A DNA stretch of 62,004 nt, the filler included, from Hausera hauseri (lineage: Eukaryota): NCBI GenBank assembly GCA_046269625.1. It is 11 parts of 11 records of this genome, joined end to end, with 100 filler letters (N's around TTAATTAATTAA, not from the genome) between each part and the next. Parts side by side here need not be neighbours in the genome. Positions count along the whole stretch, not along the records: positions 38,963 to 52,397 come from JBJURY010810975.1; 10 more parts are not named here. One strand, written 5' to 3'. Position 1 is the first letter of the stretch. Each line of letters starts with the position of its first letter. Below the pieces are notes generated by a model that worked only from the letters and a program-made list of their open reading frames with translations, was not told the DNA's origin and ran no database searches. Position numbers and translations under genes: made by a program. Positions 18,436 through 60,139 of this stretch are shown here, in pieces.

Positions 18436-18439
18436 TGCT

Positions 18440-21419: not shown

Positions 21420-24400
21420 TCTCCTTGGCAGCGTGCTTGCATCGATTAATGTGAACTTTAACAAAAGTGTTATTTTTCCTCAAACAGATATTCGATAGGT
21501 CTACCTTTTCTACTTCATATGGTCCTTTATATGGTCTATCTAATTTAGACGTTTTACATTTCTTAATTATCGGTGAATATAACATTACTTGATCGCCTAT
21601 CTTAATCTTCGGCTATTTGGTCTTTTGATCGTAGTACTTTTTATATTTTTGTTTATAATCTTTCTGATTATCACCAATCATCTTATATGCTAACTGGAGG
21701 CGTTCCTGCATTAACTGCTTATAATCATCTATTTCCATTAGGTGTGAAATGGGTTTCACATTAAAATCTAGATCGATTGGTAATCTTGCATCCCGTAAAT
21801 ACATTAAATAAAAGGGTGTCTCTTTAGTAGCCTCATGAACCGATGTCCGGTTTACGAAAACACATGCATTGATATATTTGTCCCAATCGTCTTGCCTGGT
21901 ATTTACCACCGTTTGTAATTTCCCTTTTAAATCTCCAATATACATTTCAACCATTCCATTATTCTCTGGTTGTCCTGGCGTGGATCATGACTTTAATATC
22001 TTCAGGATGTCATATATGGACTGCATTACAGTTCCATTTAAATTTGATTCTTGGGGCTCCATAATTAAATACTATATTTTCTACGAATTTCTCAGCGATT
22101 GTGTCTGCTTTCATGTCAGGCATAGGAAGGGCCACAACCCATCTCGTAAAATAGTCGATGAATACTAAGACGTATTTATTTCCATTTCGTGTCAATGAAA
22201 ATGGCCCTGTTATATCCATCGCGGTAAATTCGAATGGTGCTGGAGGGTAGTCCCATATCTTTAATGATGCTTTGAATTTTGCTCCTGTGTTTTTCCGAGT
22301 AGCACACAGCTTGCAGCTCTCGCACCACTTTTGTACATCTTTCGTTATCGTTGGCCAAAAATATTTCAGTTTTAATTTGTTTAGTGTCTTATTGGCTGAT
22401 TTGTGTCTACCAAGTAATCCATCATGATATTGAGTCAGTAAAACTGCTCTAGTTTTCTTGGGAATTACTAACGCAGGTCCATTTTGACTAATAAAATATA
22501 GAAATCCTTCTTTTTCCTCGTAGGCTTCGCTGAATCGAGCCAGATGACGGGTTAGCTCTCTGTCAATTGGTATGGTTTTATCTTTTGTGTATTTTCTAAT
22601 GGCTTTTATTTCAACATCTTCATTTTGATTTGCCTTAATTTTCTCAATTGATCCATCCATACTCCATACGGCTGCGACTACTGCCTTTGTTTCTTTTTTA
22701 TCGAGCATTCTCCATAAATAGTCGGCGTTAGCATTTTGTGTTCCAGGCTTATACTGGAAATTCAATGTATATGGTTGTAACTTTAAAGCCCATCGTAGTA
22801 GTCTGCTGTTTGGGTTCTCATGTTGCTTTAGCCATTGTAGCGGTCTATGATCCGTATAAATCAAGAGCGGTTTATTTTCGCTAATATACGGTGAAAATAC
22901 TTCTAAGGCAAATATCACTGCTAATAGCTCTTTTTCTATTACAGCGTATTTCTTTTGATACTTATTAAGTTTTCGTGATGCATAAGCTACTGGGTGTGAT
23001 TTTCCGTCTTCACCCTTTTGTGATAATACTGCTCCTATTCCATAATCACTTGCATCTGTTGCCAGAATAAATGGTTTGGTCATGTCTGGATAAATTAATA
23101 TAGGAGCCGTTAATAATTTGTTATTTAGATGTTCAAAGGCTTTTTGACATTTGCTTGTCCATATAACTTTATCTAAATCTTCACGTAATAACTCATACAA
23201 AGGTTTCGCAATTTTGCTAAAATCCTTTATGAATCTTCGGTAATAGTTTGCTAGACCTAGAAACTGACGTAATTTTTTAACGGTACCTGGCTTAGGAAAA
23301 TTCCTTATTTTTCCTAAGAGCTTATACTGAGGTTTTACAGTTTGCCTGTCTACTTTATGTCCGAGGAAATCTACCTCTGCTTGAGCAAATAAACATTTAT
23401 TGGGATTTATCTTTAGCCCCATTATTTCGCATCTATCAAAGAGATCCTGTAGATCCTTCAGATGTTGTTGAAAATTTGATGATGCTATTATTACGTCATC
23501 TATATATACCATGGCGTGTGGAACGTCTAATAGTAGGAGTTCTGTTCCTCTTTGAAATGTTGGTGGTCCATTCTTTAACTCAAAGTGCATCCTATTAAAT
23601 TTCAATAGCCCTTCTCCAATTGAGAAAGCCGTCTTTGGTTTATCTTCTTCTTTGACTTCCACTTGCCAATAACCTTTTTGTAGATAGATGGTTGTGAATA
23701 TGGTCAATCCGTGTAATTTGTCTAGTATCTCGTCAATTCTTGGTAGTGGATATGTATCGGTCTCCGTTATTTCGTTCAAAGCTCTATAGTCTATACAAAA
23801 TCTCATAGTACTATCTTTCTTTTTAACCATCACTAGGGTCGCTGTCCATGGGGAGCAACTTGGTCAAATTATCTTATTTTCTCTCATCCCTTTTATTATT
23901 TTACCAGCTTCCTGTTTTTTACCATATGCTAATCGATACGGTCTTTTCTTAATTGGCTTGTCCTGTCCGTCCTTCAACTTAATGACGTGCTGTATTACTT
24001 TCATTGTACCTAGATCATAGTCAGTTTGTGCAAATCGACTGGCATTCTTTTCTAATAATTCGATTAGCATCTCCTTTTCTTCCTTACTTAGAATTTCGCA
24101 TTTTTGCAACCTCTCGTTCCAGTTGAACTTCATGGTTTTATTTCTTTTGTCTTCGTCGGGTTTCTTCTTCAATTTTTCTGTCATCATCTTCTCTATTTTA
24201 TCTGCATCTAATATTATTGAGCAGATTTCTTCTTTTATTATTTCTTTAGTGATCGTTACTTTTCACAGTCTAGTAGCCTTCCGTAATCGTTTTTCTTTGT
24301 TTATTGTGTTACAGATTCGTAAGTGGATCTTTCTATCTTTTGCTTTATCTACCTGAGAGGCGATTAGTACCTCATATTTTTCCATAACCTGTGGAGATAG

Positions 24401-24789: not shown

Positions 24790-27700
24790 CCGTGGGCCAA
24801 TGTGGGCACCACAACACCATACCCCTATTGTCGCCGCCACATTACAACCGCCTATGATACCACCCAATGCAGAAATAGTAGCGCTGAATAACCAAATAAA
24901 CTCTCTCCGGGCTGAAAACACGGCAATACACCAAGCCATTTCTGCTTTAACGTCTAAACTGGACAATTTTTCCATGCCGCGACGAGGTCGATTCACACCC
25001 AATAATAGCCGTGCTTCATCGAACAAATCGAGATCCGCTGGGTCCCCTACTCGACCTATGGTGTGCTATTATCACATTAAATTTAAGAAGCAATCCAACA
25101 AATGTTGCTTGGGGTGTAAATTCTTTACACCAGCCTTCCAAAAATCCGACATCGTTTGTGTTTACCATAATAGGTTCAGCAATAAAGCCCGAAACTGCAC
25201 CAACGGTTGCACGTTTTCGAGTCGACTTAACCAATTCCATCGTAAGTCTCCCGACTCCCCAAATCCTACTATCCAAAAAAACTGACAAAGCCGCCAGATG
25301 TTTCTGCACATACTGGCACAGGCAAACGTCTTCAATCTAATAGCCATACTTATGCCGTTTTTACACTAAAAGCTTATTTAACTTCCGAATCCAATCAGTC
25401 AATCAATTTCCTCATTGACTCTGGGACAGCTGTTTCTTTATTACCACTATCCATCAGAACACTATCTATCTCACCGTCTAACACCAAACTGTACACAGCA
25501 AACGGCCAAGCTCTACGCATTTTTGGCAAATCCAAAGTTTCATTCACGTTACCACCAATCTCCGACATTTTCAATTGGACATTTATCGTTGTCGACACAA
25601 TCTCCAATACTTGGATCTGATTTCTTATCTTTTTACAACCTCCTTGTAGATTGTAGACAACGTCGGATCATTAAGAGCAGTTAAACAAAACCTACCCCTA
25701 CAAATAACCAACAAAGCACGCAACCTATCTCGCCTATAAAATCAATATTAAGAAAACCATCAGCCGACGCAAATAAAAACGTCATTAATACCAATATAAA
25801 TAATTCAACATTTCTGTTGCAGTCCGGTAATAGAGGAACTAAACGCGTTTACAAGGACAATCTAGGCGTCTTGGTTTCTAGCGTTTCTCACACTACGTCC
25901 AATCAAACCTTTACTACGCTTAGCCAAGAAATGCAACAATATTTAGTCAAATCTTGTTTCCATACAATTAAAAAAGACCCAGCATTTCGACCGGCTAACA
26001 TGACGCTTTATCACATCATCACAGAAAACCTTAGGCCCGTTAGGCAGAAACTCCGCCCACTTTCACCACGCCGTCGACAGGCAGTCCAAACGGAATTCTC
26101 TGCACTCGAGCAAGCTGGAATAATAAAACGCTCGAAGTCACCTTGGGCATCACCACTCCACGTCGTCCCAAAAAAATATGGCACATTCTGTCCCTGCGGT
26201 GACTATCGACAACTTAATAATGTCAAAACCATGGATGCTTATCCTCTACCGTTGATTAAGAATATATTGCATTCTTTTCACAAGACTACGATTTATTCAA
26301 CCATAGATCTCGAAAAAGCCTACCTCCAAATACTGGTAGCACCAGAAGACATCCGAAAAACGGCCATTATAACACCTTTTTGTCTTTTTGAATACGCATT
26401 CATGCCGTTCGGTTTAAAAAACGCAGCATAAACATTTCAACGGCACATTGATTCAGTCCTTTCTGGTTTGCCATTTGTATATCCGTGCATTGATGATACA
26501 GCAGTTTCATCGGCATCGCTCAAACAACACGAAGAATATCTCAGGCTAGTTTTTCGCCTCTTACACAACTACAATTTGCAAGTAAGCTTTTCTAAATGTT
26601 CCTTCTTTCACAAAAAAGTCAATTTTCTTGGCCACGTCATCACACCTGACAGTCACAGTCTGCAGCCTGATAGAATCCATCAGCTAGAAACATCGAGCTA
26701 CCGAAAACCACTACTGGTATGCGTAGTTTCCTTGGGACTTTACATTTTGTACATAAATACGTCTCACACTGTGGCCAGTTAACTGCTCCATTCGCTCAAC
26801 TAGGAGCAGGGCCCAAGGAAAAGCTCATATGTTGGACACAGGAACTTATTAACCAGTTTTGTGAACTTCGCGAGAAGCTCAAAACAGTCGAAATTTTAGC
26901 CTACCAAAAACCTGATGCTGACCTCATTCTAACAACCGACGCATCAACTACAGCAGTAGGATCGGTTCTTCATTAAATATCTCAAGGTACAAATGAACCG
27001 TTAGAATTTCTTTCGCGCAAGCTGCAGCCTAGCGAATTCCTCTATTCTACCTTCGATAGAGAGCTCTTGGCTATTGTTTTAGCTCTGAAACATTTTTCAC
27101 ACTTTTTTATCGCTCGTTCCTTTACCATTCAAACTGACCACAAACCTCTTGTTCACGTAATGAACATGAAACAACAATCACTGCGACAAGAACGCCATAT
27201 CTCATATCTGTCAACATTCAACTTCTAAATTTGCCATATTTCTGGCACAGACAATTTAATAGCTGATTTCCTACCACGGTCAGTTGGAGCAATTAGCGTA
27301 ACACCAATTTTCTCAAAGGACCAGTTAATCCAAAATCCACCTTCCAATGAAATTCTGAAACAATACAAGTCCGTGAAAATCATCGATGGAATAGCCATAG
27401 ATACTTCGACACTTGGACAACATTTGCCAATTTTGGCACCTCCTGTCCAACAAACTGCATTTCAGCATGTTCATTCTTTGCATCACCCAGGTTCCAAGGC
27501 TACATTCCGCCTCCTCAAACATCATATAACATGGCCATCAATGAGATCTGACGTACAGAGCTGGATTAGGCAATGCGTAGCTTGACAAAAGTTCAAAGCA
27601 GCTAAATATCTTAAACCACAATTATTCCATTTCCCATGTACATCTCGCTTTGACTCAGTTTACATAGATATCGTTGGCCCATTACCTTCCGATAACGGCC

Positions 27701-28900
27701 ACCAATTCATCTTAACAATGATGGACCACGCGCCTCGTTGGTTGAAATCCGTCCCTTTGTGCTCCATCAGTATGGACTCCATTGTCTACGCATTTATACG
27801 GATTTGGATTAGCCGCTTCGGTTCATCTCATTATATAATTATAGATCAAGTTCCCCAATTTGAATCGAACCTATTCAAGTCTTTAGTTAATCGACTGGGG
27901 ATAAATCACATTCACACAAGTCCATATCACCCCAAGTCGAACGGCTTACTAGAACGTTTTCATCGCACTCTCAAGATCTCATTAAAATACTGGCCAAAAC
28001 TTATAAGAATTGGAAAAACATCCTCCCTTTTGTTTTATTCGGGTGGCGCAATATGCCATATACTACCACCGGTTGCGCACCGACTGAAGCACTTTTTGGT
28101 ACCACAATTTGCGCACTTTTTGAACTCACCGATTTGGACAACACATCAACTGAAGAAACAATTATGTCTGCACAAAATCACTTTGTTCAGCTAAGCCAGG
28201 ATTTTTTCTGCAAAATAGTACATGGTGACAATTCATACTTACCTGATTCTCTATTTAATGCAAAGTTTGTGTGGATAAAACACCCTTCACTTTCCGGATT
28301 CCAACCAAACTACTTAGGACCATATAAAGTTCTCAATCTAACTTTTCACACGGTTACAATACTAAAAAACGACAAAAAACAAAATGTGCACATATCTAAC
28401 GTAAAACCTGCATTTTTCAGTAATGACACACCGGTTCCAACAACCTACTGTGCACATACCTTCCTTGACTCCTTCAACCCTTCTTCTGTTCTACCTCCAC
28501 GACAACCTGCTATTCCAAAACCTGAATCAATACAAAAAAATTACGTTAAACGAAATACCGAATAGTTCTCAAGCTTTTGACACGTCAAATCAAAATTAAA
28601 CTTCCTACCAATTAACTCAGTAAAGAACAAACAACAGGATAAAAAACACAAGACAGTCACCTTCAGCAAATACAGCAGAGAACAAAATATCGACAAAATT
28701 CAACGTCTTATCCATACAAAGACTCATGAGTTCGCTTACACCTGTCTGCCTTGTTTTCTTACTCCCGTTACATTAACACAGTGTTATCTTCGGAACGGTG
28801 GTAGTGTGATGCCGTGGACTCGGGAGCCACCACAGCCTAAGTGCACCGAATTCTGCAATAAACAATGATATCGATTCTCTTCAATATACGTTTTAACAGT
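24790..28900 (+). mobile_element. CsRn1-like Ty3/Gypsy element, decayed
   Basis: Gag with tandem CHCC motifs, FLIDSGT, SPWASPLHVVPKK, TTDAS, IDIVGPLP, YHPKSNGLLERFH and YLGPYKV. PPT-like GGTGGTAGTG then TGATG near 28807. Confidence 0.92.
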
Positions 28901-38962: not shown

Positions 38963-39925
38963 ACTCAAGGAGCAATAAAACCAGATAAAGAACGGGCTAA
39001 CATAACGAAACTAGATGACATAGTACAATCGATGGACCCAATCAAATGGGTATTAAATGAAAATATAGCCAATATTTCAGCTAATAAGAACGACAAATGT
39101 ATCCAAATAGACACAAAAGGAAGACTGTCCAGTAAACAAGAAATCTCAGTCCAATTTACGAAATTAAAGGAGTCAAGTCCAATGCCTGAATATTGTAGTC
39201 TAAAGATCACAAATCTTAGCATCTGTTGTAAAATTGCAGCATGTCATGAATATAGGATTCATTTTGACCTCTATAGAACCCAAATAAATAGATCGAGTAT
39301 CTATTTAGGAAGATATTATCCAGACAATAGAATCTGGAAAACTTCGGTTGAAACGACTACAACTAGCCGAACTGTCCCAGTAAGCACTACTGTTAGGCTT
39401 ACTATGACAAAAAAAGATGAACAAGAAGAAATTACTTAAGATTCCGGTAAATACTCTGCGCAGCAACACAAAATACTATTTTCAGTGGAAGAGAAACTCA
39501 ACTATAATATCGAAATATACTGTCGTACTATGTATAAAAGTGTGAAAACAACTTTATGGAAAGGCTCATATCACACTGAATGTAACTCATTAGTATCCAA
39601 GACAGAATACATAATCCAAATGCATGCAAAAGATGCTCAGAGTCAGACGCTCACAATACAGACCCTAGAAGAACTACAAATAGCACCATATGGAGACAAA
39701 AACACAAAACAAGAAATAACTACAGAGATAACAATTACAAAACCCAAAGGATTGACCACATTATCAATAGTAATGGTCGTAAGTCTGTCAACGCTTGTGT
39801 TTATAATATGTCTTGCGACATTTCGATTAGTTGCCGTAAATTGTCATACTAAGCGTACCAAAATCGTAGAACGGAAATTAAGGGTATGGGAACCCCAAGA
39901 ATACGTCTATGATAAAATAACCTGA
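38963..39925 (+). pseudogene. Type I membrane protein: Cys domain, Thr-rich linker, FN3-like domain, TM, YDKIT tail
   Basis: ECNSLVSKTEYIIQMHAK (FN3 C-terminal signature) and TM LSIVMVVSLSTLVFIICLATFRLVAV. One frame break near 39440. Confidence 0.75.
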
Positions 39926-40043
39926 TTATTACAGATCGGGTTATTCTATCATCAAACAAAGAATTTGTTTTGGTTTAAAAACTATACTTTGTTTTGAGAT
40001 TAACCCTTACTGTCTATTGTTTAAATTGATAAGTATCCAGATG
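39909..40043 (+). promoter_or_regulatory. Conserved double hairpin plus branch-point/acceptor-like signal (copy A; homologs at 46150-46287 minus and 53740-53864 plus)
   Basis: Stems ATGATAAAATAACCTGAT/ATCGGGTTATTCTATCAT and AAACAAAG/CTTTGTTT, then GATTAAC and a T-rich tract before the ATG. Confidence 0.7.
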
Positions 40044-42530
40044 GATTGCGGAATCAGCCGACGTAGCATCGACAATCAATTGGGATCAGGAAGCAGCCGA
40101 CGTAGTATTGACGATCAGGTCAAAAAATCGAATTCAGGAAGGAGCCGACGTAGCATCGACGATTTCCTGCAGAATTGTGCAACAGTATTAATCCCTCCAT
40201 CTAAGTCAATCTTCCGACAAATCAATAACGAACTACTCGCAAAACAATTCGTGGAATACAAACGAACACATGAGATCCCAAATAACTTAAAAGGCAGTAC
40301 CGAGGAAAACCGGACAGTACGATTATATGCAATGAGAGAGGATAAGAACGTGCGAGCGTACGCATTAGAACAACTCGTTCAATACGAACCAGTATATTAC
40401 CAGAATATATTTATTCACTTAGCGGACGGAGGAATCTATTACAGATTAAAAGATCAAAGTTGGGACTCTGCGCAAGGACGCCAACACAGATATAGTATTT
40501 TCCTAATCATTAGCAGAGATTTCCACCATTACAATTGTGAATTAGAATTTCGAGTCGCCGCATTGCCTATCAAACTTATCATAGAAGTATGTTATGAAGG
40601 CGCACCATTTATCCAGTTACCACCATTACGATTCCATTAAAGGCCAACTGAGAAGGATCAAGACGACCACTTACACTCCTTCAAATTAGTCCAAGACGAT
40701 AGAAATGCCAGGATAATTACTGTAGATTACGGAGAAGCAGATGATGACGTCCCAATCGGGGTATCTGTACGAGAGACAGGAGGAACAGAAATCTACGCAG
40801 AATTGATCACTCCCAAGAAGAGAGTACGAGAAACTTGTCTAGAAGTTACTGGAATCAAAAAGGAGCAATTAGTTAACGGAAGAGACATCGAATTAGTTCG
40901 CAAAAAATTACTCCGTTGCCTGTATGGAAGTATACTTGTTGGATATCAAATAGAAAAGATCGTGGAAAGTTGAAATTACCCGATACCCACGTGAGTTGGG
41001 TTAGAGAAATCGAGACCCACCCAATAGTCATGCAGCAGATGGAACAAACCGTTCGCAAGAAGAATGGTTATTTACCACCGACAGTAGAAGGCCGATTTAA
41101 GCCAATGTTGGAAGCTATGAGTGAAGAAGACGTTCGAATTAATAGACTCTTTACAGCGAGCCAACGTTTCCAATATCTAAAAGATATATATTCAGGACTT
41201 AAATGGAAACACGAATGGACTTTCGATAACCCTAGACAAAATTTGCGAAACACAACAAACCCCGAAGGATTAATTTCCAAACACAGAAAGCATTTTAGGC
41301 CGTATTCCCCCGTCAGAATGGTTGAATCAACAACAAGGGACAAACAATTACCCCAGCACCAGTAAAAGCCCAAATTCAGAGGCGGCCGAGCAAAAATCTA
41401 AGGATCAAAAATAATTAAGGGTACCGACAAAACCCGAAAGAAACCAAAAAGGCAAAGAAGAAGCTACATTTTCCACGGGAAAAAGGAAACTATCCCTATA
41501 CGAATACTTATTCAAAAAGAAGAATAATGGAGAAGACAACCGAAAGGTAGTTGCAAAACCTGAAAAGCCTGAAAAGACAGAAACTTAAAACGAAATAATA
41601 AAAAAAGAATCTCCGAGCACCGAAACCCTAAATAACAAAAAAGAAATGCACTCCGAAGAAATAAAAAGAAAGAAGAGAATTCAAACCCAAAGGAGAAAAT
41701 CAGACAGCGATATCGTTACCATTGAAGTGAACGTCTTGAAAAAGAAAATATTAGAAGAAAATGTGTATTTCTCCACGAACAAAGAATTTCCCAGACTACT
41801 CTTAACGGCCGAATATTGTAGCCATAAGAAAATAAAGGAAGCAATGTTCTATGTGAAAAACGCTGGAATACAAGAAACACCAGATGGAGCATACGCTTGG
41901 GAAAATCTCAGCATAGGAAATTATTTAGCCCCAATTTTTTGGTCCAAAAGGACTGGAAAGCTGTTTCTTCCTGTGAACAACCAAATTAAACTAATGTTTA
42001 AAAGGCAATATCAAGCTTACCAAAAGGAAGGTGAGATTCCCGACTTAGATAAAGAAACCATTATGGACTGGACATTAGTCCCAGTAAATTATGATCCTAA
42101 AAAGAGTTCAATTAACACCCAACAAAAAGAACTATACGGTTACCTATATTCCGATCAAGACGGACTAATATTTGAACGAATCCAGATTATACCCAAGGTT
42201 GACTTGGACGATGACGGAAACACGAATGAGAATGAAGACACTTGCCCAGTATGTAACGAGAATATCTGGCAAGGTTACGTTAAATTGGACAACCAAGCGT
42301 GTAGACACAGATACTGTCGCACGTGTTTAGAGACGTGGACGTTGGATAACGGAAAAACGACATGTCCAGTATGCCTAGCCGAGGCTGATGGGTTAAAATT
42401 TTTTTCGAACGGTGAGTGTAACAGATCCGTTCCTATACAAAGTCAGCCCAGTACTAACTATACAATAGAGGTGGAACAAGTTGACGACAGTAGTCTCCGG
42501 AGTAGACTGGACCTACTGCGCCGACAGTAA
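40041..42530 (+). pseudogene. Accessory ORF (about 830 codons): unknown N-domain, DEDDh-like exonuclease fold, Lys/Glu-rich linker, unknown domain, C3HC4 RING
   Basis: RIITVDYGE...VSVRETGG..I..P...VTGIKKEQL..G..I..V....L.G.ILVGY, and CPVC-x15-CRH..C..C-x12-CPVC. Broken by a few stops and frameshifts. Confidence 0.8.
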
Positions 42531-42590
42531 TCGGGCGCCATCTTTCCTGACACAATCGGCACATGCGAGGTGTCGTTCAGGGAGGAGAAA

Positions 42591-43359
42591 TGTTACGATT
42601 ATACATTTTGTAAAGTACGATTATGATAGCTTGCTAAAATTTAGATAAAATGCAATTAGTTTATATTAATATTCGATAGTTGTATTAATATTCGCCAATT
42701 GATAATAATTATGTAATGCGAAAAAACAGGTGTAAATCAAAAGAATTTGTACGTAATCGGAAAGAACGGATTTTAATTATTAGTTAATTGATCGAAAGTG
42801 ATGTAATCGCAAAATGGGTGTAGTATAAATAGAGACAGATTTACAGAATAGTCAGAAAGTTTTTCTGAGTTAGATCCGACAGCGATAACACAGAAAACCG
42901 AAACGTGACATTCGAAGTTAACGTATTCCAGAAGCATCAGAGGATAAAGTGCCCGAGACCTACTGTGGTGAACAAATGGATTACTCAACCGATAGCAAGA
43001 TATTGAAGTACAGGGGACGAACTGTTCAGTAGACAGAATCATTGCGAAATTGTTGATATTTATTTGGGTATTAATTATATTTTGTGTATAAAAGTGTTAA
43101 CTTATTTCTTATAGTTTCCATCGATTCTTAAAATCGATTTGACAACCCTAAGATTGTAAAATTACACTTAACTTATATAGATAAGAGAGATTCTTTTCAA
43201 ACTACGCACAGGACATAGCACGCAGTACCCGTATAGAATCTTAAATCGTAAGGCACATCCTGATTTACCGAGAACGGTAAACCGTACCTGTGTTATAAAA
43301 ATATTTTAAATTTATTGTTAGATAGTGGGAGAAGTTAGGGCCCAACCCAAAATCTAACA
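42591..43359 (+). repeat. 3' LTR of copy A (769 bp)
   Basis: Follows the PPT AGGGAGGAGAAA. Termini TGTTA...TAACA, TATAAATA at 42824. Shares AAAATCGATTT and GCACGCAGTAC with the copy C LTR. Confidence 0.88.
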
Positions 43360-43660
43360 CTTATATACTAATGCAACTGCGTACGTGACTGATTTCATTT
43401 ATTATTTTTGGAATTATAAAGTTTTTAACTTAATTGTTCGGTATTATCCGATTTAAAGATTAATATAAATTCAACGCTTTCTCCAAAAATTTTACAAAAT
43501 ATACCAAATTATTGCTAAATTCTTTCTCTATATTTGTACAAATTCCTAAGTTCGTACAATAATGATAAATACCATAAAATAATAATTATTTACAATTTGC
43601 TGCTGATAATAGTATTTACAATTTTTGGACGTCTTTGCAATACTGGACGTCTTTACAACA
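43360..43660 (-). repeat. Interrupted 3' LTR of copy B (first 301 bp)
   Basis: Minus strand PPT CAGGAGGAGAAA then TGTTG. Ends at TATATAAG, directly abutting the end of the copy A LTR. Confidence 0.8.
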
Positions 43661-46151
43661 TTTCTCCTCCTGAATGGCATCCTCGGATGTGCCTATTGCG
43701 TCAGGAGAGGTGCCGTGAGAACGAGGCGAACGTAATAATTCCATACGTTGTCTTAAACTGGTTTCAAAGCTGGTACTTGGTTGGCTTTCTCTGGGATTTG
43801 TTTCCAATTCGTAACTGTAGTATGGTTTTGTCCTAACTACCCGAGTATAACTACCGTTGGAATAGTAATTCAAATCAGCAGCCTCAGCTCTACATACTGG
43901 ACATGTGGTTTTTCCATTATCCAACGTACATTTCTCCATGCAGTCTCGGCAATATTTGTGTCGGCAATCCGGGTTATTTAGTTCTACATATCCTTGCTTC
44001 AGATTCGCCTCACATACGGGGCATTCATGCTCTTCTCTCTCATAATTTCGATAGGTTCTATTATCAACACTTCTTCATCTTGGTATAAGTAGGCATATAT
44101 TCTCTTCTGTTTCGGATTTATTGAGCTTTTCTTGGGATCACATCCCACGGTTATTAGAGTCCAATCGCTGATAGTACCTCGATTTAAATCGAGAACTTCA
44201 CCAGTCGATCGGTATTTTTGATATTGTTTCTTTAGTAACAACTTTATTGATTTATCCACGGGGACTAGAAGTTTGCCATATCGGTGCAACGTATTTTCCG
44301 ATCTTAGGATTTTCCCAGACATAAGTGTTCTCGTAGACTTGTCTGGCGGGCATTAATTTGACGAAAAACATCGCCTCTTTGATCCTTTGTTTACTATAGT
44401 ATTCTGTCGCAACCAACATTTTAGGATAATGCTTTGTAGTGGCGTAATGTATGTTGTCCGTAGAGTTCTTCTTCCGTAATATATTTATTTCCGTTATCCG
44501 TTCCTTCTGTTTGCTCGTTATCCTTGTAGACTTCTCAGTATGGGTTTGAATAGTCGTTTTTGATGATCTTTTTGCTTGTATTCTTGGACTGTTGGTTCGC
44601 TTTATTTTTGAATCCTTATTGTCTGATCTGCGCCCTTCTTTTGGTTCATTTTCCCATTTACTTTTTTTCTTGAATAAATATTTGAGGAAGGAGGTTTTCC
44701 TCTTAGCTATCTTTCCGATTTCGATTTCTGGAATTCTGTCTTTTTCTTCTAGGTACTTTCAGGGAACTTCGGGTATTTTAAATAAATTATTATTTTCAGC
44801 GTTCTCCATAGTTGACGCGGCGCAATAACTTGTACTTGGCCTTTCCTCTGTTTTTAGTTTATTTCCCGTTTTCTTGGTTCTCAATCCTTGGATCGTTATT
44901 TGATAATTCCACTTTGGTGTCATTTCGACGTTTCATGGTGGAGAGTATGGGCAGAAGTGTTTTTTGTATCGTGTACTGACCCCTTCAAGTTTGGGAAAAC
45001 TTCGTAGGTTCTGTCCGGGGTTATTGGGAATCCATTCATGTTCTCATCTTAATCCAGCGTTTGTGTCTCTTATATACTGGGATCGTTGACTAGCGATCAA
45101 CAGTCGGCTTATTTTTATGTTTCCTACGGTCATTGCCTCTACCATTAACTTAAATCGGCCTTCCACGGTCGGTGGTAGATGACCCTTTTTCTCTTTAACC
45201 TTGATATCCATTTGTCCCATTACAGTTGGGTGGGTCTCTATCTCTCTGATTCCGGCTAGGTGAGTTACTGGTATGTTTAATTCCTCTATCATTCTTTCTA
45301 CTTGATACCCCACTAAGACGTATCCGTATAGGCACTGTGCTACTTCCTTTTGCACTAATTTAGAATTTTTTCCGTGTATTAATTGTTCTCGTTTAATCCC
45401 AGTTACTTCTGCATAGGTTTCTTGTACTTTCTTTCTTGGGTTAATGATTTTCGAACAGACCTCGGCCCCATTTTCTTCTCGTATGAAAATTTCAATTGGG
45501 ATATAATTTCCTTCATCTCCTTCTCCATAGGCTATTGCGGCAATTCTGATGTTCCTGTCATCGGTTACTAATTTGAATGAGTGTAGATGCGCGTCCTGTT
45601 CTTCTTCAGTGGGCCTTTGCTTAAATTCTAAGGGCGGCAATGTAGTGGTTATTGTTTCCTCTTTAGTTATTTCGACTATCATTTTCACAGGTAATGCAGC
45701 TATACGAAATTCCAACTCGTAATTGTGGAAACTTCTACTGTTAAATACTAACGTGCTAAACCGGCTTTGTCTTCCTTTGGAATGAATCCCATTTTTGGTC
45801 TTTTAGCCGATAATAGATTTCCCCGTCGGCTAAGTGTACATATATTTTCTGTTCCTTGTCCGTTTGGTGCTGGGTGATCTGTTTCAAGGGGTATGCTCTG
45901 GCATCCTTATCTTCTCTCCATGCATATAAATATATAGCTCTGGCCTCTTCAGTTGTTTCTTTTAAATGGTTTTGTATATCGTCGATTTTTGTGTACTGAA
46001 TGAAGTTTTGTCCTTGCAATTCTGTGTTGATTTGCCTATAGATGGCTTTTGAGTTCGGGATACGTACAGTCACATACTGTTCCAAAAATTCGTCGATGCT
46101 AAGTCGGCTCGTATTTTTCTCATCGTCGATGCTAAGTCGGCTCGGGTTCAT
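43616..46151 (-). pseudogene. Accessory ORF copy B (DEDDh-like fold plus RING)
   Basis: IAAIAYGE...IINPRKKV...EVTGIKREQL..G.....VQKEVAQCLYGYVLVGY, and CPVCEANL...CRHKYCRDC...TCPVCR. Confidence 0.82.
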
Positions 46152-46270
46152 TTGGATCTGATTACTTACCAATCTGAAAAAAAGACATAAAGGTTAATCT
46201 TAAAACAAAGGATGGTCTTAAACTAAAACCAATTCTTTGTTTGATGATAGAATAACCTGGTCTGTAATTG

Positions 46271-47700
46271 TCAGGTTATTTTATCATACGGATCTACCGG
46301 GTTTTTCAATTCCCTTAATTCCCATTCGGAGTTTTTAGGACGCTTAGAATAACGGTTTTTGGTAACTAGTCGAAAAATCGCAATTAACATAATGAGAACA
46401 AACGTTGACAGTGCAGAGATGGATACGATCGACAGTGTAGTTAATCCCATTGGTGTTTGTGTGGTGACTAGAGTTGTGATTTCCTCATCTACATCCTCAT
46501 ATGAATGCTACTCTGCACGAGTTTCGCCTAAGGTACACAATGTGATGGTTTGGTTTTGTTTATTCTCTGCATGCACTTGTACTATGTATTCGGTTTGTGG
46601 TTTTAATAAGTTGCACTATGTTTGATAAGTATTTTCAAATAGCGTCACAATTTTATTATTATATGTTGTTTGACAACTTATTTATATATTGTAGTTTTGT
46701 TTCTTTTTCACAAATAACACAATTTTAGATCGATATGCCGAATATTTAATTGGAATGCTTCCTAATTCTCTTTTAGGCACACGGCTTGACGTAGCGGTTA
46801 CCGTAACGGCACTAACTCGAGTGGCTGGCTTTTTAGTGGTCAATTCTACTGTGATTTTCCATATTCAATTTTCTGGATAATAAGTTCGTAATTGTACACT
46901 TGATTTGTTAGGTCGTACCTCGTACAAGTCGAATTTTATTCTAAACTCTTGGTTCACGGGTAGTTTGCAACAAGGGTGTTGTACGCCTGCGCAAATAGAA
47001 CAATATTTTATTTTCAGAGTTGGTCTATTAGCTGCTTCGAATGTGATACTAATTTCTCGACTGATAGTTAACTCTGTTTGGGCATCTACTTGGATGCATT
47101 GTTTCTGCTTGTTTACAGAGATTCTCCAAATATTTTCGTCTAATAGTCTTACATCTGGGTCGGTAGATCGTAGCATTTCGCTGGGTTTTACTCCATGATG
47201 TCTGTTCCATGCATGAATGACTAATTGAAATTGTGGTTTTACTTCGATATAAACTTCGATTGAGTCTGGTAAGTATAGGCGATAAATAAGGTTATAAATA
47301 CGTCCAAAATCTATGTCGCAACTCTGCGTATTTTCTCCAGGCTCAAAATCACAATTCTTCGCTTCTTTCGTTGTTACATCATATAAACCAATCTGAAATC
47401 TTCCGAAATCGTGGTGTGGCCTCCAAGCCTAAAATCCAACACATACTGTATTTGGCGAGTAATAATGAATTGTCATTTATTGTAACAATTTAATATCTTC
47501 TTGTCTTTGAATTTCTTCGACTGTTGGTTTCTTCTTCGTTTTAATTGTTTCCGGTTTTGCTCCACTCTTCCGAATTCCATATATATCTCCTAACGTAGAT
47601 TCATCGTGCCACCTTTGAATCTGTGTTCGCAGAATATAAGAAGCAATTAATGATAATGCTAAAACTATCTGAACATATGATATTGGTCTAGCAATTATTG
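46271..47700 (-). pseudogene. Type I membrane protein copy B (signal-like segment, two Cys domains, FN3-like domain, TM, YDKIT)
   Basis: ISYVQIVLALSLIASYIL follows the integrase end KRYNLRQRK in frame. CNLLKPQTEYIVQVHAEN; TM GLTTLSIVSISALSTFVLIMLIAIF. Confidence 0.75.
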
Positions 47701-47719
47701 AGGAAGTTTTTACCTTACG

Positions 47720-50700
47720 TTGACGTAAATTATAACGTTTATTGGGCCGTATTTCCGTCTTAACAACTCTTTGTACTGACACGATTTCTTCCTTTCCGTT
47801 TTTGTTGATGTACACCGTGGTTGGTGTAACTCTGGTAACTTCGTACGGTCCTCTGCCTGTACGAGTTAATTTCAATGAGGTGCCTTTTTTGGCTACGGGA
47901 TAGTGTACATAAACTCAATTCCCTTGTTCTAAATCGTGCGGTTTAGTTTTCTTATCATATTGCTTTTTAAACTGCTCTTGATATTCTTGAGACAACTCTT
48001 TGGCGATTTCCCAACATTTTTGCAATCGCACCTGTAATGCTTCTGCAAAATTCTGTTCCAAGTCTTCCGGCTTTACCGTGTAGGGCGTCATTCCTAAGTC
48101 TGTACGTAACACAGCTTCACGTCCATACATCATAAAAATGGCGTAAATCCTGTTGCTGGATGCGGAGTAATATTAATTGCAAATTGAGTTCCTTCTAAAA
48201 ATTCGTCCGAATCTTTTTTGTCCTAAGCTACTACGGTTGATAGTATAGGTATGACAATTGCATTCATTCGATCAACTATTCCATTACACTGCGGATGATA
48301 CGCAGTTGTGGTTAACCTTACGATTTCAAATATTTTGCTAATCTTCTCGAATAGTTCACTGTCAATATTTGGTCTGGCGGTCCATATCGGCAAATGATTC
48401 TTCTAACCACAACTTTGGCCAAGGTTTCTTCCTTTTGATCAATTAGCGCTATTCGACAAAATGAGTTAGTCGATCAATACAAGTCAAGATGTAATTATTG
48501 TCCTTGTGTATCGTAGGTAGCGGTCCTACGATATCCATTGATATGGCCTGCATGGGTCTATCCGGTACGTTGATTGGTTTCAGTTCTGCCATGCATTTTT
48601 TGTCTTCTTTTGTTTCGTCGCACATACTTTACAAGCATTCACCCAATTTTTTACATCAATATAGATACTGGGCCAAAAGTACTTATTCAATATTCTTTCC
48701 AGCGTCTTTTTCCATATGTGTCCTGCTAAATATGAATCATGTTCTGCCATTAAGACTTCGGTTCGTAAACTCTTAGGAATGACTATCAGTTTTCTTCCTT
48801 TCCGTTCGTGATATAAGATATCTACATTACTTTTGTCATTTAAGACGCAGTATTTATGTCCCTGCCTGTGTAAATGTTTCTTTGCCGTCCTTTTGGTATG
48901 ATGGCCTTTTTACCAAATTCTATAATTTGCTGAATAACTTTATCCTTCCTTTGTTCGATGGAAATTTTAATCGTTTTATCCATTGTTAAGACGCGACTTT
49001 TCTTCATTATGGTGATTACACTTGTTTTCGTCCTGAATCTTGATAGTGCATCGGCATCTACATGTTTATTTCCTGGTTTATATTGGAATTCAATATTGTA
49101 TCTAGAGATTTCTTCGATCCATCTATTAAGTCTGCGTGTCGGATTATTTGCTTGGCCTTTTAAGGTCGTGACGGCTTTATGGTCAGTGACAATTATAATT
49201 TTCTGCCCGCACACATAAACGTTGAAATTTCTAAGCGATTCTTTTACTGCTAGGGTTTCTAATTCAGTAACAGAATAATTTTTCTCGGCTTTCTTCAGGG
49301 AACGTCCTCAATAAGCAGTTGGGTGTTCTAATTCTTCATCTTTTCTTTTCTGCGCTAATTCATATCCAATACTTTCTTTAGTGGCATCTGTTTTGATTAA
49401 AAAAGGTGAATTGAAGTCTGGATATCGTAGAACTGGTTCACTTTTTAATATTTTCTTCATTTTGTCGAAGACTTTCTGTTCGACATCCGTCCATTTCCAT
49501 TTAATTCCCTTTTTGAATAGTCGGTACAGAGGTGCATTAATTTTTGAGTTATCCGGTACGTAGGTGGCATAATATCCACAAAGGCCTAGCCAATATCTTA
49601 ACTCTTTCTGATTTTGAGGTTCCATGCAGTCTGATATCTTGTTTAATATTGATTTGTCCGGTTTTGATCCTCCTTCTTTGACTATATGGCCAAATTAAGA
49701 TACTGCGTTCTGTGCCCATTTACTTTTCGGATTTAATTTTAATCCGGCCTGTTCTAGTCCCATCAACGTGTGTTCAATATCCTTTAAGTGTTCCTCTTCC
49801 GTTCTTGACGCTATCATTACATCGTCTAAATATGCAAAAGCAGGGTCTAACCCCAATAATATTTTGTTTATCATCCCTGTAAATATGGCCGGTCCGGTAT
49901 TAATACCAAAGGGCATTACGTTGTATTCATAAACACCATTGTGTCTTGAACGCTGTTTTATATCGATCTTTGTCTTCGATTTCTACTTGCCAAAATTCGG
50001 ATTGTAAATCCAGATATGGTAAGCCATTTTGCCCCTAAGAGTCTATCCAGAGCCTCTTTTACACATGGCATTGAAAAAGAATCTTTCATCATGAAATTAT
50101 TTAGTCCTCTGTAGTCGATACAGAATCGATGTTTCTTAGTACCTTTCTTTTTAACCATGAGGATTGGTGAGTACCAGGATCTATAACTGGGCCTAATTAT
50201 ATCGGCCTTAAGCATTCGCTTGACTTCTTTTGTTATCTTGGGTCTTAGTGAAAGTGGCGGAGGATACCATTTCGGCATTTTTTGATCTTCAAGATCTATC
50301 TCTTCATTCGAACCAGGCTTCTTCTGAAGCGGAATAGTCAACTTTAATGACTTTGCCCTGCCAATATCTTCGTCGTTCTGAGCAATAATCGACTTATAGC
50401 GACACAATAATTCATAGAATTGACAATATGATTCAGGTGAAGACTTAGTTTCAACATGCGGTGGGAAATCGGCATACTTGTAAGAATTTTCTTCAGTACT
50501 TATAGATGACACCCTATACGTATCTCCTAAAGTCGTATAGGCATGAAGTTTTACGGGGGTCGGTACATTATTTTCTATCCTGATCGTCAAACGACCGGAG
50601 TATACTCTTGTCAATAAGTTACTGAGTATTGTATTTGGATTCAATGTCTCCTTTGGTTCAAAATATACCGGTTGATCATCATCTTGTTGAACATGCGCGT

Positions 50701-51140
50701 AAATTATTATTTCTGTTTTCGGCGGAATGTTTTTATTTACTGGTATCCATACTTCCCCAAATTTTCTATCCTTCGTGTTTTTTACACCTTTATTCGGCCT
50801 AATTTCTATTAATTTTCCCGTTTGTAAGTCTATTGCTATATTCTGTAGCCTTTTTTATAGGTCACACCCTAAAACTACGTAGTCAGTTAATTGTTCCATG
50901 ATTGCAAATTCGTGACGGAAGAACTGTCCGACTATTTGGACTTCTGGGTTCCATTTGAACATTGGTTTCGACATTTGGCCAAAAGCTCCTCTGCTGCCTG
51001 GGTCTTCCGTAAATGATGGGTATAACTGTCCTCTTAAGGTTTGAGGTATACAATCTATTTTAATGTAAGACATCTCAGAAACCGCATCAATTAATGCGTA
51101 AACCTCCCAGTCTTCAAGAATGATTTTGGCGAAGGGTCTT
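47720..51140 (-). pseudogene. pol copy B (PR, RT, RNase H, integrase)
   Basis: YALIDAVSE and VVLGCD (PR), RFCIDYRGLN and YLDDV (RT), KTDAT and VTDHKA (RH), IDIVGPLP, YHPQCNG and GRGPYEV (IN). Confidence 0.93.
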
Positions 51141-51829
51141 CTTTCTATTACTGTTCCAAAACAGTTTGATGCAACTTTTGGACGCTTATTCGCCGATATT
51201 TTATGTCCGTTGATTCAGATTTCTGGGGAGGATATTATGTTTTCTGATCATTGTCTTAGTTCTCCGTTTGGATATAATCCATTGTTTTCCACGTCCAATT
51301 CTTTCGTTTCATGAGTACTAAATAATGGTTCTCGATTGTTCGTGTGAGGCTCTATATTCCGGAAAGTTTTTAACCTTGGATTTTCCCAGACAAGTGATCT
51401 AGTCTCTATGTTCCGAGGTTCTCTCGGGGAATACAATATTTTAGGGTCAACCATGGGTTGTCGATAACATATTTTTCGTAGGACTCCATAACGTTTCGTT
51501 CCTTTATAGGGGTCTTCTAAACTAATTGTCCTCTTATAGATTTTTGTATGATACGATTTCATTGATCGCTTGTCACAATCTTCGTAAACTGGAGCAGTAG
51601 GGAGTAGCATAGGCAGTGGTGCTTTAATGACGGAATACGTTCTGTGCCTTTCAGTTTTCGAAGGTACTTCTCCTCTCTTAGGCTCGTTATCATCTGAACT
51701 ATTCCTTTGTGTATTATGTTTCGTGATTTTCCGCTTGTTCAAGAACATAGGTTTCCTTTTTCGTTTACGATTATAGTAACTGACATGACGTTCTACGTCC
51801 GATTTCCATCTATTCTCTTCGTATGCTTT

Positions 51830-52397
51830 CAAAAACTTTCCAAAAGACGTTATAATTGCAGTTAGTATCTTGCATGAAAATCCAGTCAATGTAAATATTT
51901 CATAACCATTTATTACTGTTTGGATGACTGCCTTAATTATTTGTATCAGGAAATATATCGCTAAGAATCCGGATGCGGCTTGTCGAAAAATCAAAAATCT
52001 TCCCTAAGTTTTGTAGAGTATTTCTGTGGTTACCCTCTGGTAATGGTTTACGCCAAGCAGTGATTCCCATTTAGCTTGATATCTAGTATCATCTACTACC
52101 GAGGCCATGGCTCGATTTAATTCATGTGTCCGCTGTCGTGGAAAGGCAAGAAATTGTCTAAAGGCTTCAATATCTTTAGGCCTATATATGCCTTTTTGTG
52201 AGGTATCCTGGAACTTGTCGACGGTGATTCCTTTTGCAAGATTCGTGCCAGTTAGCTTCCTTGGGGCAGCAGTAATGCATCCATTAGGAAAACTGACCCA
52301 ATCTGTTTCTCTAAGTCTAAACATAAGCTCGCCCAAACTTGCCTTGCAATCTTAAAGGATTGTTGGTTCAGTTACGTTATCTAATAACACTAGTGAG
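51830..52397 (-). pseudogene. Chuvirus-like (class III-type) fusion glycoprotein, C-terminal part
   Basis: DC...LMFRL...W..FP, GIYRPKDIEAFRQFLAFP, T*GRFLIFRQAASGFLAIYFLIQIIKAVIQTVINGYEIFTLTGFSCKILTAI. This fits the recalled chuviral G pattern GIY...D....R....FP / W..F..FG..SAG......IK....T.IHGY.L....GWS..LL.A. Confidence 0.78.
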
Positions 52398-52497: not shown

Positions 52498-53756
52498 CTT
52501 CTTATGTACCCAAGGTGAAATCGATAACTATAGCCGAAAAACTACGATACGCGATGAAACGCAGGTATATCCAGAATATGAGTACACGATATGGATTGGA
52601 GCAAACCATGTGTATGGTTTGAAGCAAGCGAACCTATTAAGAACCACGTAAAACTTCAAATAACATTTGTAACCAGATACACGATGAGAACATGTGATTT
52701 TCCATACGGATATGAAAAAAGATGCTGTGATTTGGATTTTGGACAAACCTACGGATGCAGATTTCAAGTGCTTTATTCTAATCAGTTTGCAGCTCAAGTT
52801 TATATAATTACAGAACTCGTAATAAGAATGCCCCAACAAGAGGACGCAAACCAAGCCAAGACGGACGAAATAATCCGAAGCACTGACCCGTTTAAAAGAC
52901 TCTTAGATTATAACATTATGGGGATTTACAAGGACTTACAGAATCAGTGTATACGAATTGAGACCAAAATAGAGCTGCCTGGAGACAGACAAAATTCTGT
53001 CTCATTTATACCATTAAATGCTTACATTTCTAACCCGGAGTATTGTTATCTGGCCAGACACCTATCTACTACGTACTGTGTAATACAAATAGAACAGGAT
53101 TATCAGTTTTAATTCGACCTGTACAATACGTACCCCGGAGAACAAAGCACTTATTTAAGAGGATACTGTCCGAAAAACGGAATATGGAAACTGTCATTCC
53201 CAACCACTACGAAAAAACGGTCTACTGCTCCGAATACAACTCGCACTACTACGATCGTCACTTTGGATGGAATGCCAGGAAGCATACCGGTTAAGATTTT
53301 GGCAAAAAGCAATAAAATTCTATTTTTTGCTGAAGAGACGTTAAATCAAGACGCCAAAATTGAATGTCGCACCCTGCACACCAACCAAGTCGTGATCCTG
53401 AGAAAGAATAGTCAGGAAACTGAATGCAGGTCATTACGGCCGCAACATTACTATATAGTCAGAATCACTGCAAAGAGTAAGAACCCTAAAACGTACACAG
53501 TGTGGACTTTAGATAATAGAATTGAAATAATGCAGCATAAGGGTCTTAGTACCCAAAGTGTGTTCACCACAAATAGTTCCATCAAGGAAAATAATTTACC
53601 AATAATAGCTATATTTAATTTGCCTAGTTTCGTTCTTGTCACATTAAAGGCGATGATTTTTCTATTTTCCACAAATTGTAATAAAAGCTGTAAATATCAA
53701 AAAGGAGATAAAAGGGAAAAAAGCACCAAGACGGACTTTATGATAGCATAACCTGA
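52498..53756 (+). pseudogene. Type I membrane protein copy C
   Basis: Two Cys domains, ECRSLRPQHYYIVRITAKS (FN3-like) and a hydrophobic segment. An alternative frame ends LYDSIT*. Confidence 0.72.
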
Positions 53757-53861
53757 CAACTACAGAATGGATTATCCTACCATCAGACAGAGAAAATGTT
53801 TTGTTTCAAAACAATGATCTGTCTTAGGATTAACCTTTATTTTTATTTTAGCAGAGTAAGT

Positions 53862-56288
53862 ATGGCCAAGAAGGCGAAGAATCCACAGTCAGTTCCAATT
53901 TTGATATCGATGGCTTCCTACAGCAGCACGTCACGGTTCTTAAACCACTATCCAAAAGCTTATATCGACAAATTGGAGAAAATCTGAAAACGCAGAACTA
54001 TCCAGAGTTCGACCAAGAAAGTAAAATACCAAACGGACTAAAATGGGGTTTAGAAGAGAATCGACTGGTTCGATTATATGCCATGCGAAATCCGAAGGAT
54101 GCACGGGCATATCTTTTAAGAGATCTAATTCCATACGAGCCGACACATCAGCAATTGTACGTACATGTCGCTGATGGATAAATTCAATTCAGGATCGTAG
54201 GACAATCCTGGAGTACGCAAAAAGGGCAACAGTGGAAATTTAGTACTTATGAGCTATGCTGCTATAGCCTCATAAATTATGCTCTGGAATTCAGGATCGC
54301 GGACCTTCCGACCAAAATTATGATCGAGATGACGTGGTGAACAGAGGTAATGAAGCCACTACCACCGTTATTATACGTAAAGAAGCCATCAGAAGATGAA
54401 ATAGAGTAAATGGGAAATTGTATAGATTAGTCCCAGATGGCCGAAATACCCGGATATTAGCCGTAAACTATGAAGAAAAGGATGACGGATGGTATGTTCC
54501 GATTGAGGTCTCTATCAAAAATACTAATGGAGAACAGGTTGTAAATAAAATAATCGCACCATGAGCGATAAAAGGATACTTTTCCTGACGTTGAAGGAAT
54601 TACAAAAGTTCAGCTCGAAAAAGGAAAGGATTTCTTGTAGATCCAAGAAGATATAAGCCATTGCTTATATGGATATATTGTTACCGGATTCCGAGTGCAC
54701 AAAGCGTTGGAACGATTAGGAATTAGGCAAGAATATATAGCCGGAATTCGAGAATTGAGCCAAAACCCAGCAGTTGTGAGCCAAGTAGAAAATACCTTGA
54801 TGCGGAAAACAGGTTGCCTGCTTCCGTCAGCATTGCGCGAATCGCAATTTTAGATGATGCTAGAAGCCATGAATGTCGAACGATCCAAATTCCATAACCT
54901 GATTAAAACAAGTCAACGGACCAAATTTATAAAAGATATCTATGACTCGTTACGATGGGATCACGAGTGGAAACCTAGAAATTACATGCAGAATGCGATA
55001 TTCGACAATAACCCCAAGATCCTAATACAAAAAATCCAAAAAGGATTTAGTAAATACCCGATTTATCGGCAAGTAGTACCCCAAGAACATAACCGATTTT
55101 GAGTGACAGTTCAAAATAATCCAGTAGAAGTTCCTAACAGCCAACAAAAACCAACGACCAGTCAAGCTCAAAAAGAAATAATAGTGAAATCAAATAACCC
55201 CGACAACTCAAGAAGGCAAAAGACAAAAACTTCCTTCCTGGAATATATTAGTAAGAAGAAGAGCAAACCTAGTAAAAATCAAACAGACGAAAACAAACCA
55301 GCAGCCGACAGCCCAATTCAGAAGGAACCGACAAACGATCAAAAGGAAATATCGAACCAACAAGGAACAAAGGAAAACAACGAAAATCAGTGAAGAACTA
55401 CCAAAACCGGATCGTTTAAGACAGAAGTTAACGTTCTTCGGAAAAACTGGGAGGAAGATACTACAATTATCGTTACAGAATTCGGTCAAGTGAAGGAATA
55501 TAAAAGAATCCTCGTCATGCCTGAGTATTATAGCAAATGTAAAATCAAAGCTATATTTTATGTATCCACTGTCCCTAGAAGAATAGTAAGTGGAAACGGG
55601 TATGCCAGAGAAGATACTACCATTGGCAGATACCTAGCCCCAATATTTCAATCAAAGAATGGCACTAACAGATTGACAATTCTCGTGGATACCCAAGTTA
55701 GAATTCAACTAAAAAGACAATACAAGAAAACTGGAGTACCCGACTTGGATAAATAGGAAATAGTTGAATGGACATTGGTTACGGTATCCGACGATCCGAA
55801 GAAAAATTCAATAGACCCCAATAAAAAGAGATTATACGGATATATATACCAAGACAAAGAGGGACTGGCATTCGAGAGAATAGAATGGATGAAAACCTTG
55901 TGGACATCGACGGAGCTGAAAAGGAAGAATGTCCCGTTTGCGACGCGGATCTCTATCAAGGATTCGTAGTACTGGACAACAAAGATTGCAGTCACAAATA
56001 TTGCCGGTACTGTTTAGAGACGTGGACCCTGAAAATGGGAAAACGACCTGTCCAGTATGCAGAGCCGAAGCTACAAGGCTGAGATACTACTCAAATGGAG
56101 AAAATAAGAAAATAGTAGAGATATTACCCGAGAAGGCCACTACGTCCTACCATTTTAACTTGCAATTGCCGTCGAACGAAACGGATTCGGAAGCGGACTT
56201 ACGCGGACGAATGAAGCGATTACACGGCACCTTTACTGACGCAATGGGCACATCCGAGAGTGCCGTTCAGGGAATAGAAATGTTGTGA
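53862..56288 (+). pseudogene. Accessory ORF copy C (DEDDh-like fold plus RING)
   Basis: RILAVNYEE...VPIEVSIKNTNGEQVVNKIIAP...GIT..QL..G......EDISHCLYGYIVTGF, and CPVCDADL...CSHKYCRYC...TCPVCR. More decayed than A or B. Confidence 0.78.
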
Positions 56289-59628: not shown

Positions 59629-59749
59629 TGTATCCGATTTTGACGCAATACTGCTTTGATTTGGATCATACGGTTTTGTGATGTCAACGTTTCCCGAATG
59701 ATTTCTTTTTCTGCTGTTTGTTTCGCATACTTCTGTTCTAAAGTCAAAA

Positions 59750-60139
59750 TCAAATTATATTTTCGATTTCTGCATTTTTGAGCAACGCCTCGATTTCGAG
59801 CTCTTTCCTTTCTAATATCGTTTGCTCATCAACATCCTTTTCTTCTTTCATCAATTTATAAATATTTGGCGCTTCTTTAGGTGTGTTCCGGACAGAAGAA
59901 TTGCTCAGTCCACAGTTACTTTCATTTGCACTGCTACTAACTGACAAACAACGAATATTGATTACAGATTGGCCATTTGTGATCATTGGCGCGGGAACCA
60001 GTTTAATAGAAATCTGATTGAGTGGATTAGCATTAGCAATGCGAGAAACGACGTTTATCAACGAATTTAGCTGACTAAGGAGTTGGTTTTTAGATGAATC
60101 TTGACATTTGTTAGCGATGATAGAACTCGATATTATCAT
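59750..60139 (-). CDS. Hypothetical protein or exon, possibly the same gene as 58930-59628
   Basis: 129-codon ORF on the same strand, 120 bp upstream. No motif. Confidence 0.3.
   Translation of the reverse strand: MIISSSIIANKCQDSSKNQLLSQLNSLINVVSRIANANPLNQISIKLVPAPMITNGQSVINIRCLSVSSSANESNCGLSNSSVRNTPKEAPNIYKLMKEEKDVDEQTILERKELEIEALLKNAEIENII

Follow-up and report, generated by a model that had tools for sequence, protein, structure and literature searches.

Stop codons that are read through have been described with the context CAR-YYA, a conserved G at +9 and 3′ stems that lie 7 to 12 nt away, with a spacer of 12 nt in Sindbis virus (PMC3159437, in the sections available). The accessible part of a 2026 review gives animal viruses only readthrough types II and III (PMC13517186). 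In turnip crinkle virus and umbravirus-like RNAs, an inactive fold dominates the free RNA and an active fold forms at the recoding site (PMC10602861, excerpted text). Among LTR retrotransposons, the portions of the reports available describe suppression of a pol-env stop in SIRE1 (PMC3414828) and, in Tca2, a gag-UGA-pol arrangement where a stop with a predicted structure gave no readthrough in yeast reporters (PMC2194720). Both are Ty1/copia elements with an in-frame stop before a downstream gene. The element considered here is also an LTR retrotransposon with such a stop, but its stop closes the pol frame, behind a membrane domain, and the gene that comes next is nuclease-like/RING. A second comparison is with the GAG-ENV-POL errantiviruses and planarian Burro/GYPSM1, where a fusion glycoprotein lies in frame before protease and RT (PMC13524379, PMC6431247), an env-before-pol order known from nematodes, bryozoans and flatworms (PMC13524379). 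Burro also carries extra ubiquitin-related domains, a likeness to the RING-bearing element below (PMC6431247). The available text of these accounts yielded no mention of the ORF3-ORF4 module that we describe (PMC13524379, PMC6431247), and the main text of the eLife paper on errantiviruses does not mention readthrough, splicing, stem, exonuclease or RING. Our literature search found no description of this element's putative readthrough signal (older SIRE1 and gag-pol recoding work may mention it), no CARYYA readthrough in retrotransposons and no platyhelminth LTR-retrotransposon readthrough with RNA structure.

The window analysed here is a stretch of 62,004 nucleotides from Hausera hauseri, made up of 11 contigs joined by N spacers. 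The feature occurs in three related stretches, A (+ strand), B (− strand) and C (+ strand), which are decayed copies of an envelope-carrying Ty3/gypsy element; stops and frame breaks are present in every copy, and contig ends fall inside env (B) or inside ORF3 (A and C). Copy B is the longest. Upstream of pol it retains the final part of a fusion glycoprotein of Monjiviricetes type (PF24664, E 7e-13), after which come protease-like, RT, RNase H and integrase regions (47696..52397, −). The env region is in the same frame as the start of RT, and the protease-like and RT regions follow in that frame. This corresponds to the ENV-POL part of a GAG-ENV-POL Ty3/gypsy errantivirus, where PR-RT-RH-IN is preceded in frame by a mononegavirus-type fusion glycoprotein. 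One contig carries both A and B, tail to tail and separated by about 1.1 kb (42530-43616), and some 60 bases at the end of ORF4 are common to A, B and C.

The spacer under study was initially annotated as lying between two downstream ORFs, and it does separate ORF3 from ORF4; in B, however, ORF3 is no separate gene, since a single frame runs from the integrase core to the stop and ORF3 continues the integrase frame. ORF3 is decayed in A (38966..39925, +), B (46271..47695, −) and C (52582..53756, +). A hydrophobic, signal-like stretch comes first, followed by beta-sandwich domains with a likeness to fibronectin type III (low-confidence model, pLDDT 49), then one membrane helix and a tail; copy A retains the beta-sandwich ectodomain, the helix and a tail ending in YDKIT. 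In B the signal-like stretch comes directly after the end of the integrase and in the same frame (47600-47695, −), and for this reason ORF3 may be cut out of the pol polyprotein by signal peptidase. The tail ends Y-D-x-I-T-UGA in all three copies, and this motif is kept while the rest of the tail diverges (39908-39925, +, and homologues). It resembles a YxxΦ sorting motif, though its codons are also under the constraint of hairpin 1, described below. ORF4 (A 40041..42530, +; B 43616..46151, −; C 53852..56288, +) is likewise decayed in each copy and encodes a cupin/oxygenase-like barrel, an ISG20-like exonuclease fold (model pLDDT 69) and a C-terminal RING finger.

The UGA that ends ORF3 is followed by CAR-YYA-xxG in two of the three copies: B reads UGA-CAA-UUA-CAG (46262..46273, −), a type I readthrough context by the motif given in PMC3159437, and C reads UGA-CAA-CUA-CAG (53754..53765, +). 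In A (39923..39934, +) the context is UGA-UUA, which differs from CAR-YYA at the first two bases and keeps the G at +9. Across the window, CARYYA follows 13 of 6550 stop triplets (0.2%), and two of these 13 are the B and C sites. The likeness to type I, the tobamovirus signal UAG-CAR-YYA, thus consists of CAR-YYA directly past the stop and of the +9 G in B and C (PMC3159437, PMC13517186, from the parts at hand). Type I also has UAG as its stop and A at −1, but all three copies have UGA preceded by ACC. The likeness to the alphavirus-like type II lies in UGA-C followed by a predicted stem 12 nt downstream, within the 7 to 12 nt of that type, with further structure held in the loop (PMC3159437, same sections); here, however, the context is CAA in B and C and UUA in A, not the CUA or CGG of type II. 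Because it fails the defining codon tests of both types, we file the element under neither. By analogy, it appears to work like a readthrough cassette in which a type I context is mixed with type II-like structure.

The initial annotation had described a conserved double RNA hairpin with compensatory changes, and its stems are found in A (39909-39994, +), B (46200-46287, −) and C (53740-53825, +). Hairpin 1, which in A (39909..39952, +) contains the Y-D-K-I-T codons and the UGA, lies at 46244..46287 (−) in B and at 53740..53783 (+) in C; hairpin 2 occupies 39954..39994 (+), 46203..46242 (−) and 53785..53824 (+), respectively. Against 200 dinucleotide shuffles, the folding z-scores of the spacer were −6.5 in A, −6.2 in B and −2.4 in C. 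Among 379 sense-strand windows across the three elements, the A and B spacers rank first and second, are the only ones with z below −4, and are joined by C in eighth place. The spacer is indeed more conserved than its flanks, with pairwise identities of 0.89-1.0 in the stop region and 0.73-0.86 in the long stem introduced below, versus 0.52-0.66 in the ORF3 tail and 0.52-0.59 in early ORF4. The compensatory changes held up for hairpin 2 but not for hairpin 1: all of the two-sided changes (3 of 31 pairs) fall in hairpin 2, where C has two A-U to G-C paired changes in the outer stem, and none affects the 15 pairs of hairpin 1, three of which are broken in C. With three sequences only, significance is out of reach, and 32 of 500 shuffles of the three-copy alignment reach the same covariation value. 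The double-hairpin structure is real and its covariation suggestive only; together, the fold, the conservation and the paired changes support a functional cis RNA element.

The same bases can also form a second fold. The 3′ strand of hairpin 1, 12 to 27 bases past the stop, has two complementary partners: the codons that precede the stop and the segment immediately after hairpin 2. Pairing with the latter gives a long stem-loop that encloses hairpin 2 and excludes hairpin 1, and the two folds are mutually exclusive. When the RNA was blocked to +9 or +11, a stand-in for a ribosome on the stop, or when the 5′ strand of hairpin 1 was removed, the long stem-loop was predicted in all three copies (A 39938..40006, +; B 46191..46258, −; C 53769..53835, +), each time beginning exactly 12 nt past the UGA. 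In the free RNA of A and B it has near-zero probability and is approximately 7-8 kcal/mol weaker, and in C it is preferred even in free RNA. Its z-scores of −3.9 (A), −4.2 (B) and −4.0 (C), with 0 of 200 shuffles as good, show that the long stem fits the three copies more evenly than the double hairpin. Two-sided changes are present at 4 of its 24 pairs, among them the base pair of the stem, which is A-U, G-C and G-U across the three copies; this covariation is not significant either (29 of 500 shuffles). Compared with type II signals, two further differences emerge: the stop-containing hairpin is predicted to sequester the stem's 5′ strand until a ribosome arrives, and the 3′ strand overlaps a splice-acceptor-like signal. 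The proposed exchange of an inactive for an active fold recalls turnip crinkle virus and the umbravirus-like RNAs, but those elements need long-range pairings and belong to plant RNA viruses (PMC10602861, excerpted text), whereas the switch here is local, predicted and in a retrotransposon.

The spacer had been called non-coding, which now looks doubtful. In C the frame of the stop is open for 33 spacer codons (chance ~0.07). A representative library gave 21 protein matches at E<=0.001, of which two are close, P0001 and P0002. Both are known as protein sequence alone, from hairpin 2 onward: they start inside hairpin 2 and are open and in register through the tract into ORF4, in a register that equals the readthrough frame of C and aligns with the stop's own frame. 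P0002 runs uninterrupted for 870 residues, and the first methionine past the tract is more than 30 codons further on in both. That both relatives keep an open, matching frame from hairpin 2 to ORF4 makes translation of the spacer probable. The arms of hairpin 2 in P0001 read M-T-G and S-C-H, for which perfectly complementary codons are possible, a property that 8 of 11172 tripeptides allow; these complementary arms suggest further paired changes. No copy in the window has its stop in frame with the ORF4 core; register is lost inside the spacer in A and B and just behind it in C. Copy B has a stop codon inside the spacer in the readthrough frame, at a loop-closing codon whose three positions each have common variants. 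The rest of B has few frame breaks: a single frame runs from env to RT, and a single frame leads from the integrase core up to the stop. Among other copies (run X1 contigs), the pyrimidine tract shows two length variants of one base each.

Variation among copies was read from run X1, where 690 contigs cover a 141-base stretch of B and substitutions were counted above 8% of depth; these data carry no phase information, divergent contigs in them are clipped, and the window itself may derive from this run. None of the 16 substitutions above this threshold falls in the stop, in the 14 bases before it or in the 10 after it. Three of the six substitutions in hairpin 1 break pairs, with no partner change listed, and each of these three variants can pair in one of two long-stem registers, where the partner is a fixed base or another listed variant. 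In the stems of hairpin 2, two of the four substitutions disrupt a B pair, in a count that excludes the loop-closing codon with its three positions. Hairpin 1 stands out from its neighbours by a much higher summed contig depth, a measure that gives no copy number and cannot rank the parts.

On balance, we think it likely that the spacer is a programmed readthrough signal in the form of an RNA switch with two states, of which hairpin 1 would be the resting one. Its product would be a fusion in which a nuclease-like/RING protein is joined to a fibronectin-III-like membrane protein. Neither the readthrough context nor the refolding, and no such function, had been named in the initial annotation. 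The context and the stem would lead a minority of ribosomes to insert an amino acid at the UGA and to cross approximately 33-34 spacer codons into ORF4, while most chains would end at the YDKIT tail. The fusion would be a membrane-anchored protein with the nuclease-like domain and the RING finger on the cytoplasmic side. Such a fusion would tether the RING finger to a surface protein, which makes down-regulation of host membrane proteins by the transposon plausible.

The spacer probably serves as a splice acceptor for ORF4 as well. The initial annotation had named splicing control among several possible roles, and for this one a branch-like motif, a pyrimidine tract and a YAG have been found in B and C. 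In B (46164..46199, −) the branch-like UUAAC is followed by the tract, CAG and, 4 nt later, GUAAGU; C (53828..53861, +) has a branch-like motif, a tract, UAG and the donor-like GUAAGU. Copy A (40006..40043, +) has a pyrimidine tract, degenerate acceptor-like and donor-like motifs and AG-ATG at the start of ORF4, and lacks a YAG at the homologous place. We scanned the sense strand for YAG sites where 12 or more of 15 bases are pyrimidines and which also have a branch-like motif. The 8897 bases of B contain two YAG sites of this pyrimidine content, one of them with the branch-like motif, and this is the spacer site; the 3903 bases of C contain a single site, again the spacer. The GTRAGT 4 nt past the acceptor is the only one in B, and no run X1 substitution above 8% occurs in 46155-46199. 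The GUAAGU lies 4 nt past the AG in both B (46164-46175, −) and C (53850-53861, +) and reads V-S in the ORF4-entry frame, a pair that recurs in P0001 and P0002; it could delimit an exon of 4 nt, act as a U1 site by which the acceptor is tuned, or code for protein.

Splice control might be the whole function; this is the main alternative, unlikely but credible. The spacer would then be the 3′ acceptor of a spliced, or spliced-leader trans-spliced, ORF4 mRNA, the two folds would expose or hide the branch point, and the readthrough-like context would be a coincidence. The uniqueness of the motif-bearing acceptor in B and in C, that of the GTRAGT behind it in B and the invariance of 46155-46199 all fit this account. 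As far as the sources at hand go, the extra ORFs of LTR elements are typically expressed from spliced messages (PMC5408684), and parasitic flatworms trans-splice close gene pairs with a leader that ends in AUG (PMC12582326). At the acceptor of C, this AUG would enter ORF4 in frame, with no need for a frame break, though not at that of B, where phase-0 entry at the main acceptor hits a stop before ORF4. A is without YAG at the homologous place, and splicing alone leaves unexplained both the CAR-YYA-xxG with its uniform 12-nt spacer and the fact that P0001 and P0002 are open and in register ahead of the AG. Were the splice role alone real, this would be an ordinary subgenomic acceptor with an unusually well conserved structure.

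Readthrough, our preferred reading, can be combined with the acceptor in a single scheme. In B the branch-like UUAAC is also the 3′ strand of the long stem, so that the motif is accessible in the double hairpin and masked in the long stem. For A and B, the predicted resting form of the free RNA is the double hairpin, in which UUAAC, tract and AG would be open. A ribosome reaching the UGA would have to melt hairpin 1; the freed strand could then pair downstream and close hairpin 2 into the long stem-loop at the mRNA entry channel. We tentatively propose, well short of conviction, that this is a ribosome-triggered switch, in which the double hairpin keeps the acceptor open in untranslated RNA and the ribosome converts it to a readthrough stimulator. 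If so, two expression routes are overlaid on one 120-base stretch, and a type I (CAR-YYA) context with 3′ structure occurs in an animal retroelement. A flatworm retrotransposon would then have a receptor-like membrane protein to which a cytoplasmic RING ubiquitin-ligase tail can optionally be added. Readthrough signals and splice acceptors are each known, normally apart; here one short RNA would set the ratio of membrane protein, fusion and free ORF4, and the ribosome would flip it. The scheme bears on why recoding elements keep inactive folds.

The export and packaging roles that had also been suggested for the spacer, together with internal initiation, gained no positive evidence. We regard as improbable a function in RNA stability, export or packaging, in which the hairpins and the tract would shield the RNA from nonsense-mediated decay or bind Gag or an export factor. 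An element of Rous sarcoma virus blocks nonsense-mediated decay through PTBP1, and such tracts and readthrough elements both protect viral RNAs (PMC6277124, partial text). Here, too, a pyrimidine tract and about 2.6 kb of further sequence lie behind the stop, but the tract, short as it is, terminates in YAG, the spacer lies far from either end of the element, and any protection could be a side effect of readthrough.

More improbable still is another form of recoding: a +1 frameshift at ACC-UGA (antizyme-like), reinitiation, or internal initiation at the ORF4 AUG. In A and B the +1 frame meets no stop over its first 33 codons, and in A it continues unbroken into ORF4 (ORF 39921-40640); these two copies also have an in-frame AUG 115-119 nt past the stop. 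In C, however, the +1 frame is closed, and in B it stops short of ORF4; the frame that P0001 matches is that of the stop itself, not +1, and C has no in-frame AUG before the ORF4 core. Slippage to −1 was rejected, as no canonical slippery heptamer is present in the stop's frame in any of the three copies. An Rfam search of the window, which had been suggested as a check, returned no match at gathering score, the best weak match having 27 bits versus a cut-off of 60 (E 1.4); a known Rfam RNA (SECIS, IRES, hammerhead, snoRNA or miRNA) was rejected on this ground, and the lack of an IRES family match also speaks against internal initiation. That an AT-rich inverted repeat merely folds by chance is hardly credible, for all that three AT-rich sequences without significant covariation might suggest it, because the spacer provides the top two of the 379 windows, is more identical than the flanking coding DNA, and has paired changes as well as two coherent signals.

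When the window was searched with a covariance model built on A, B and C, a fourth copy was absent and the only additional matches were echoes on the reverse strand. No further loci came from pattern scans in viral and metagenome contigs, and protein-guided scans gave 345 and 276 pattern matches, none of them confirmed. Other contigs of the window carry further LTR retrotransposon remnants (8415-29291 and 57805-62004), which include RT, RNase H and integrase at 22010-23863 and related pieces at 10625-12594, 26120-28102, 18429-19113 and 61243-62004; by the same covariance model, these remnants are without the hairpin spacer. The first two contigs share a repeat, an inverted match of 890 bases at 84.5% identity (2424-3309 versus 4238-5120).

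A sequence search of the PDB gave no match to the flanking proteins, and protein searches gave no relatives for ORF3 and, for the N-terminal part of ORF4, no longer relatives and one of near length. Among the library matches, P0003-P0005 are proteins with several exonuclease repeats. P0006, P0010, P0013, P0014, P0015 and P0019 share the barrel-plus-exonuclease part of ORF4 at 18-22% identity, and no RING finger is seen in them by eye. ORF4 starts with short tandem repeats, S-R-R-S-I-D three times in A (40059-40163, +) and S-R-L-S-I-D twice in B (46080-46141, −). Since run X1 contigs skip 40047-40146, the number of these repeats varies.
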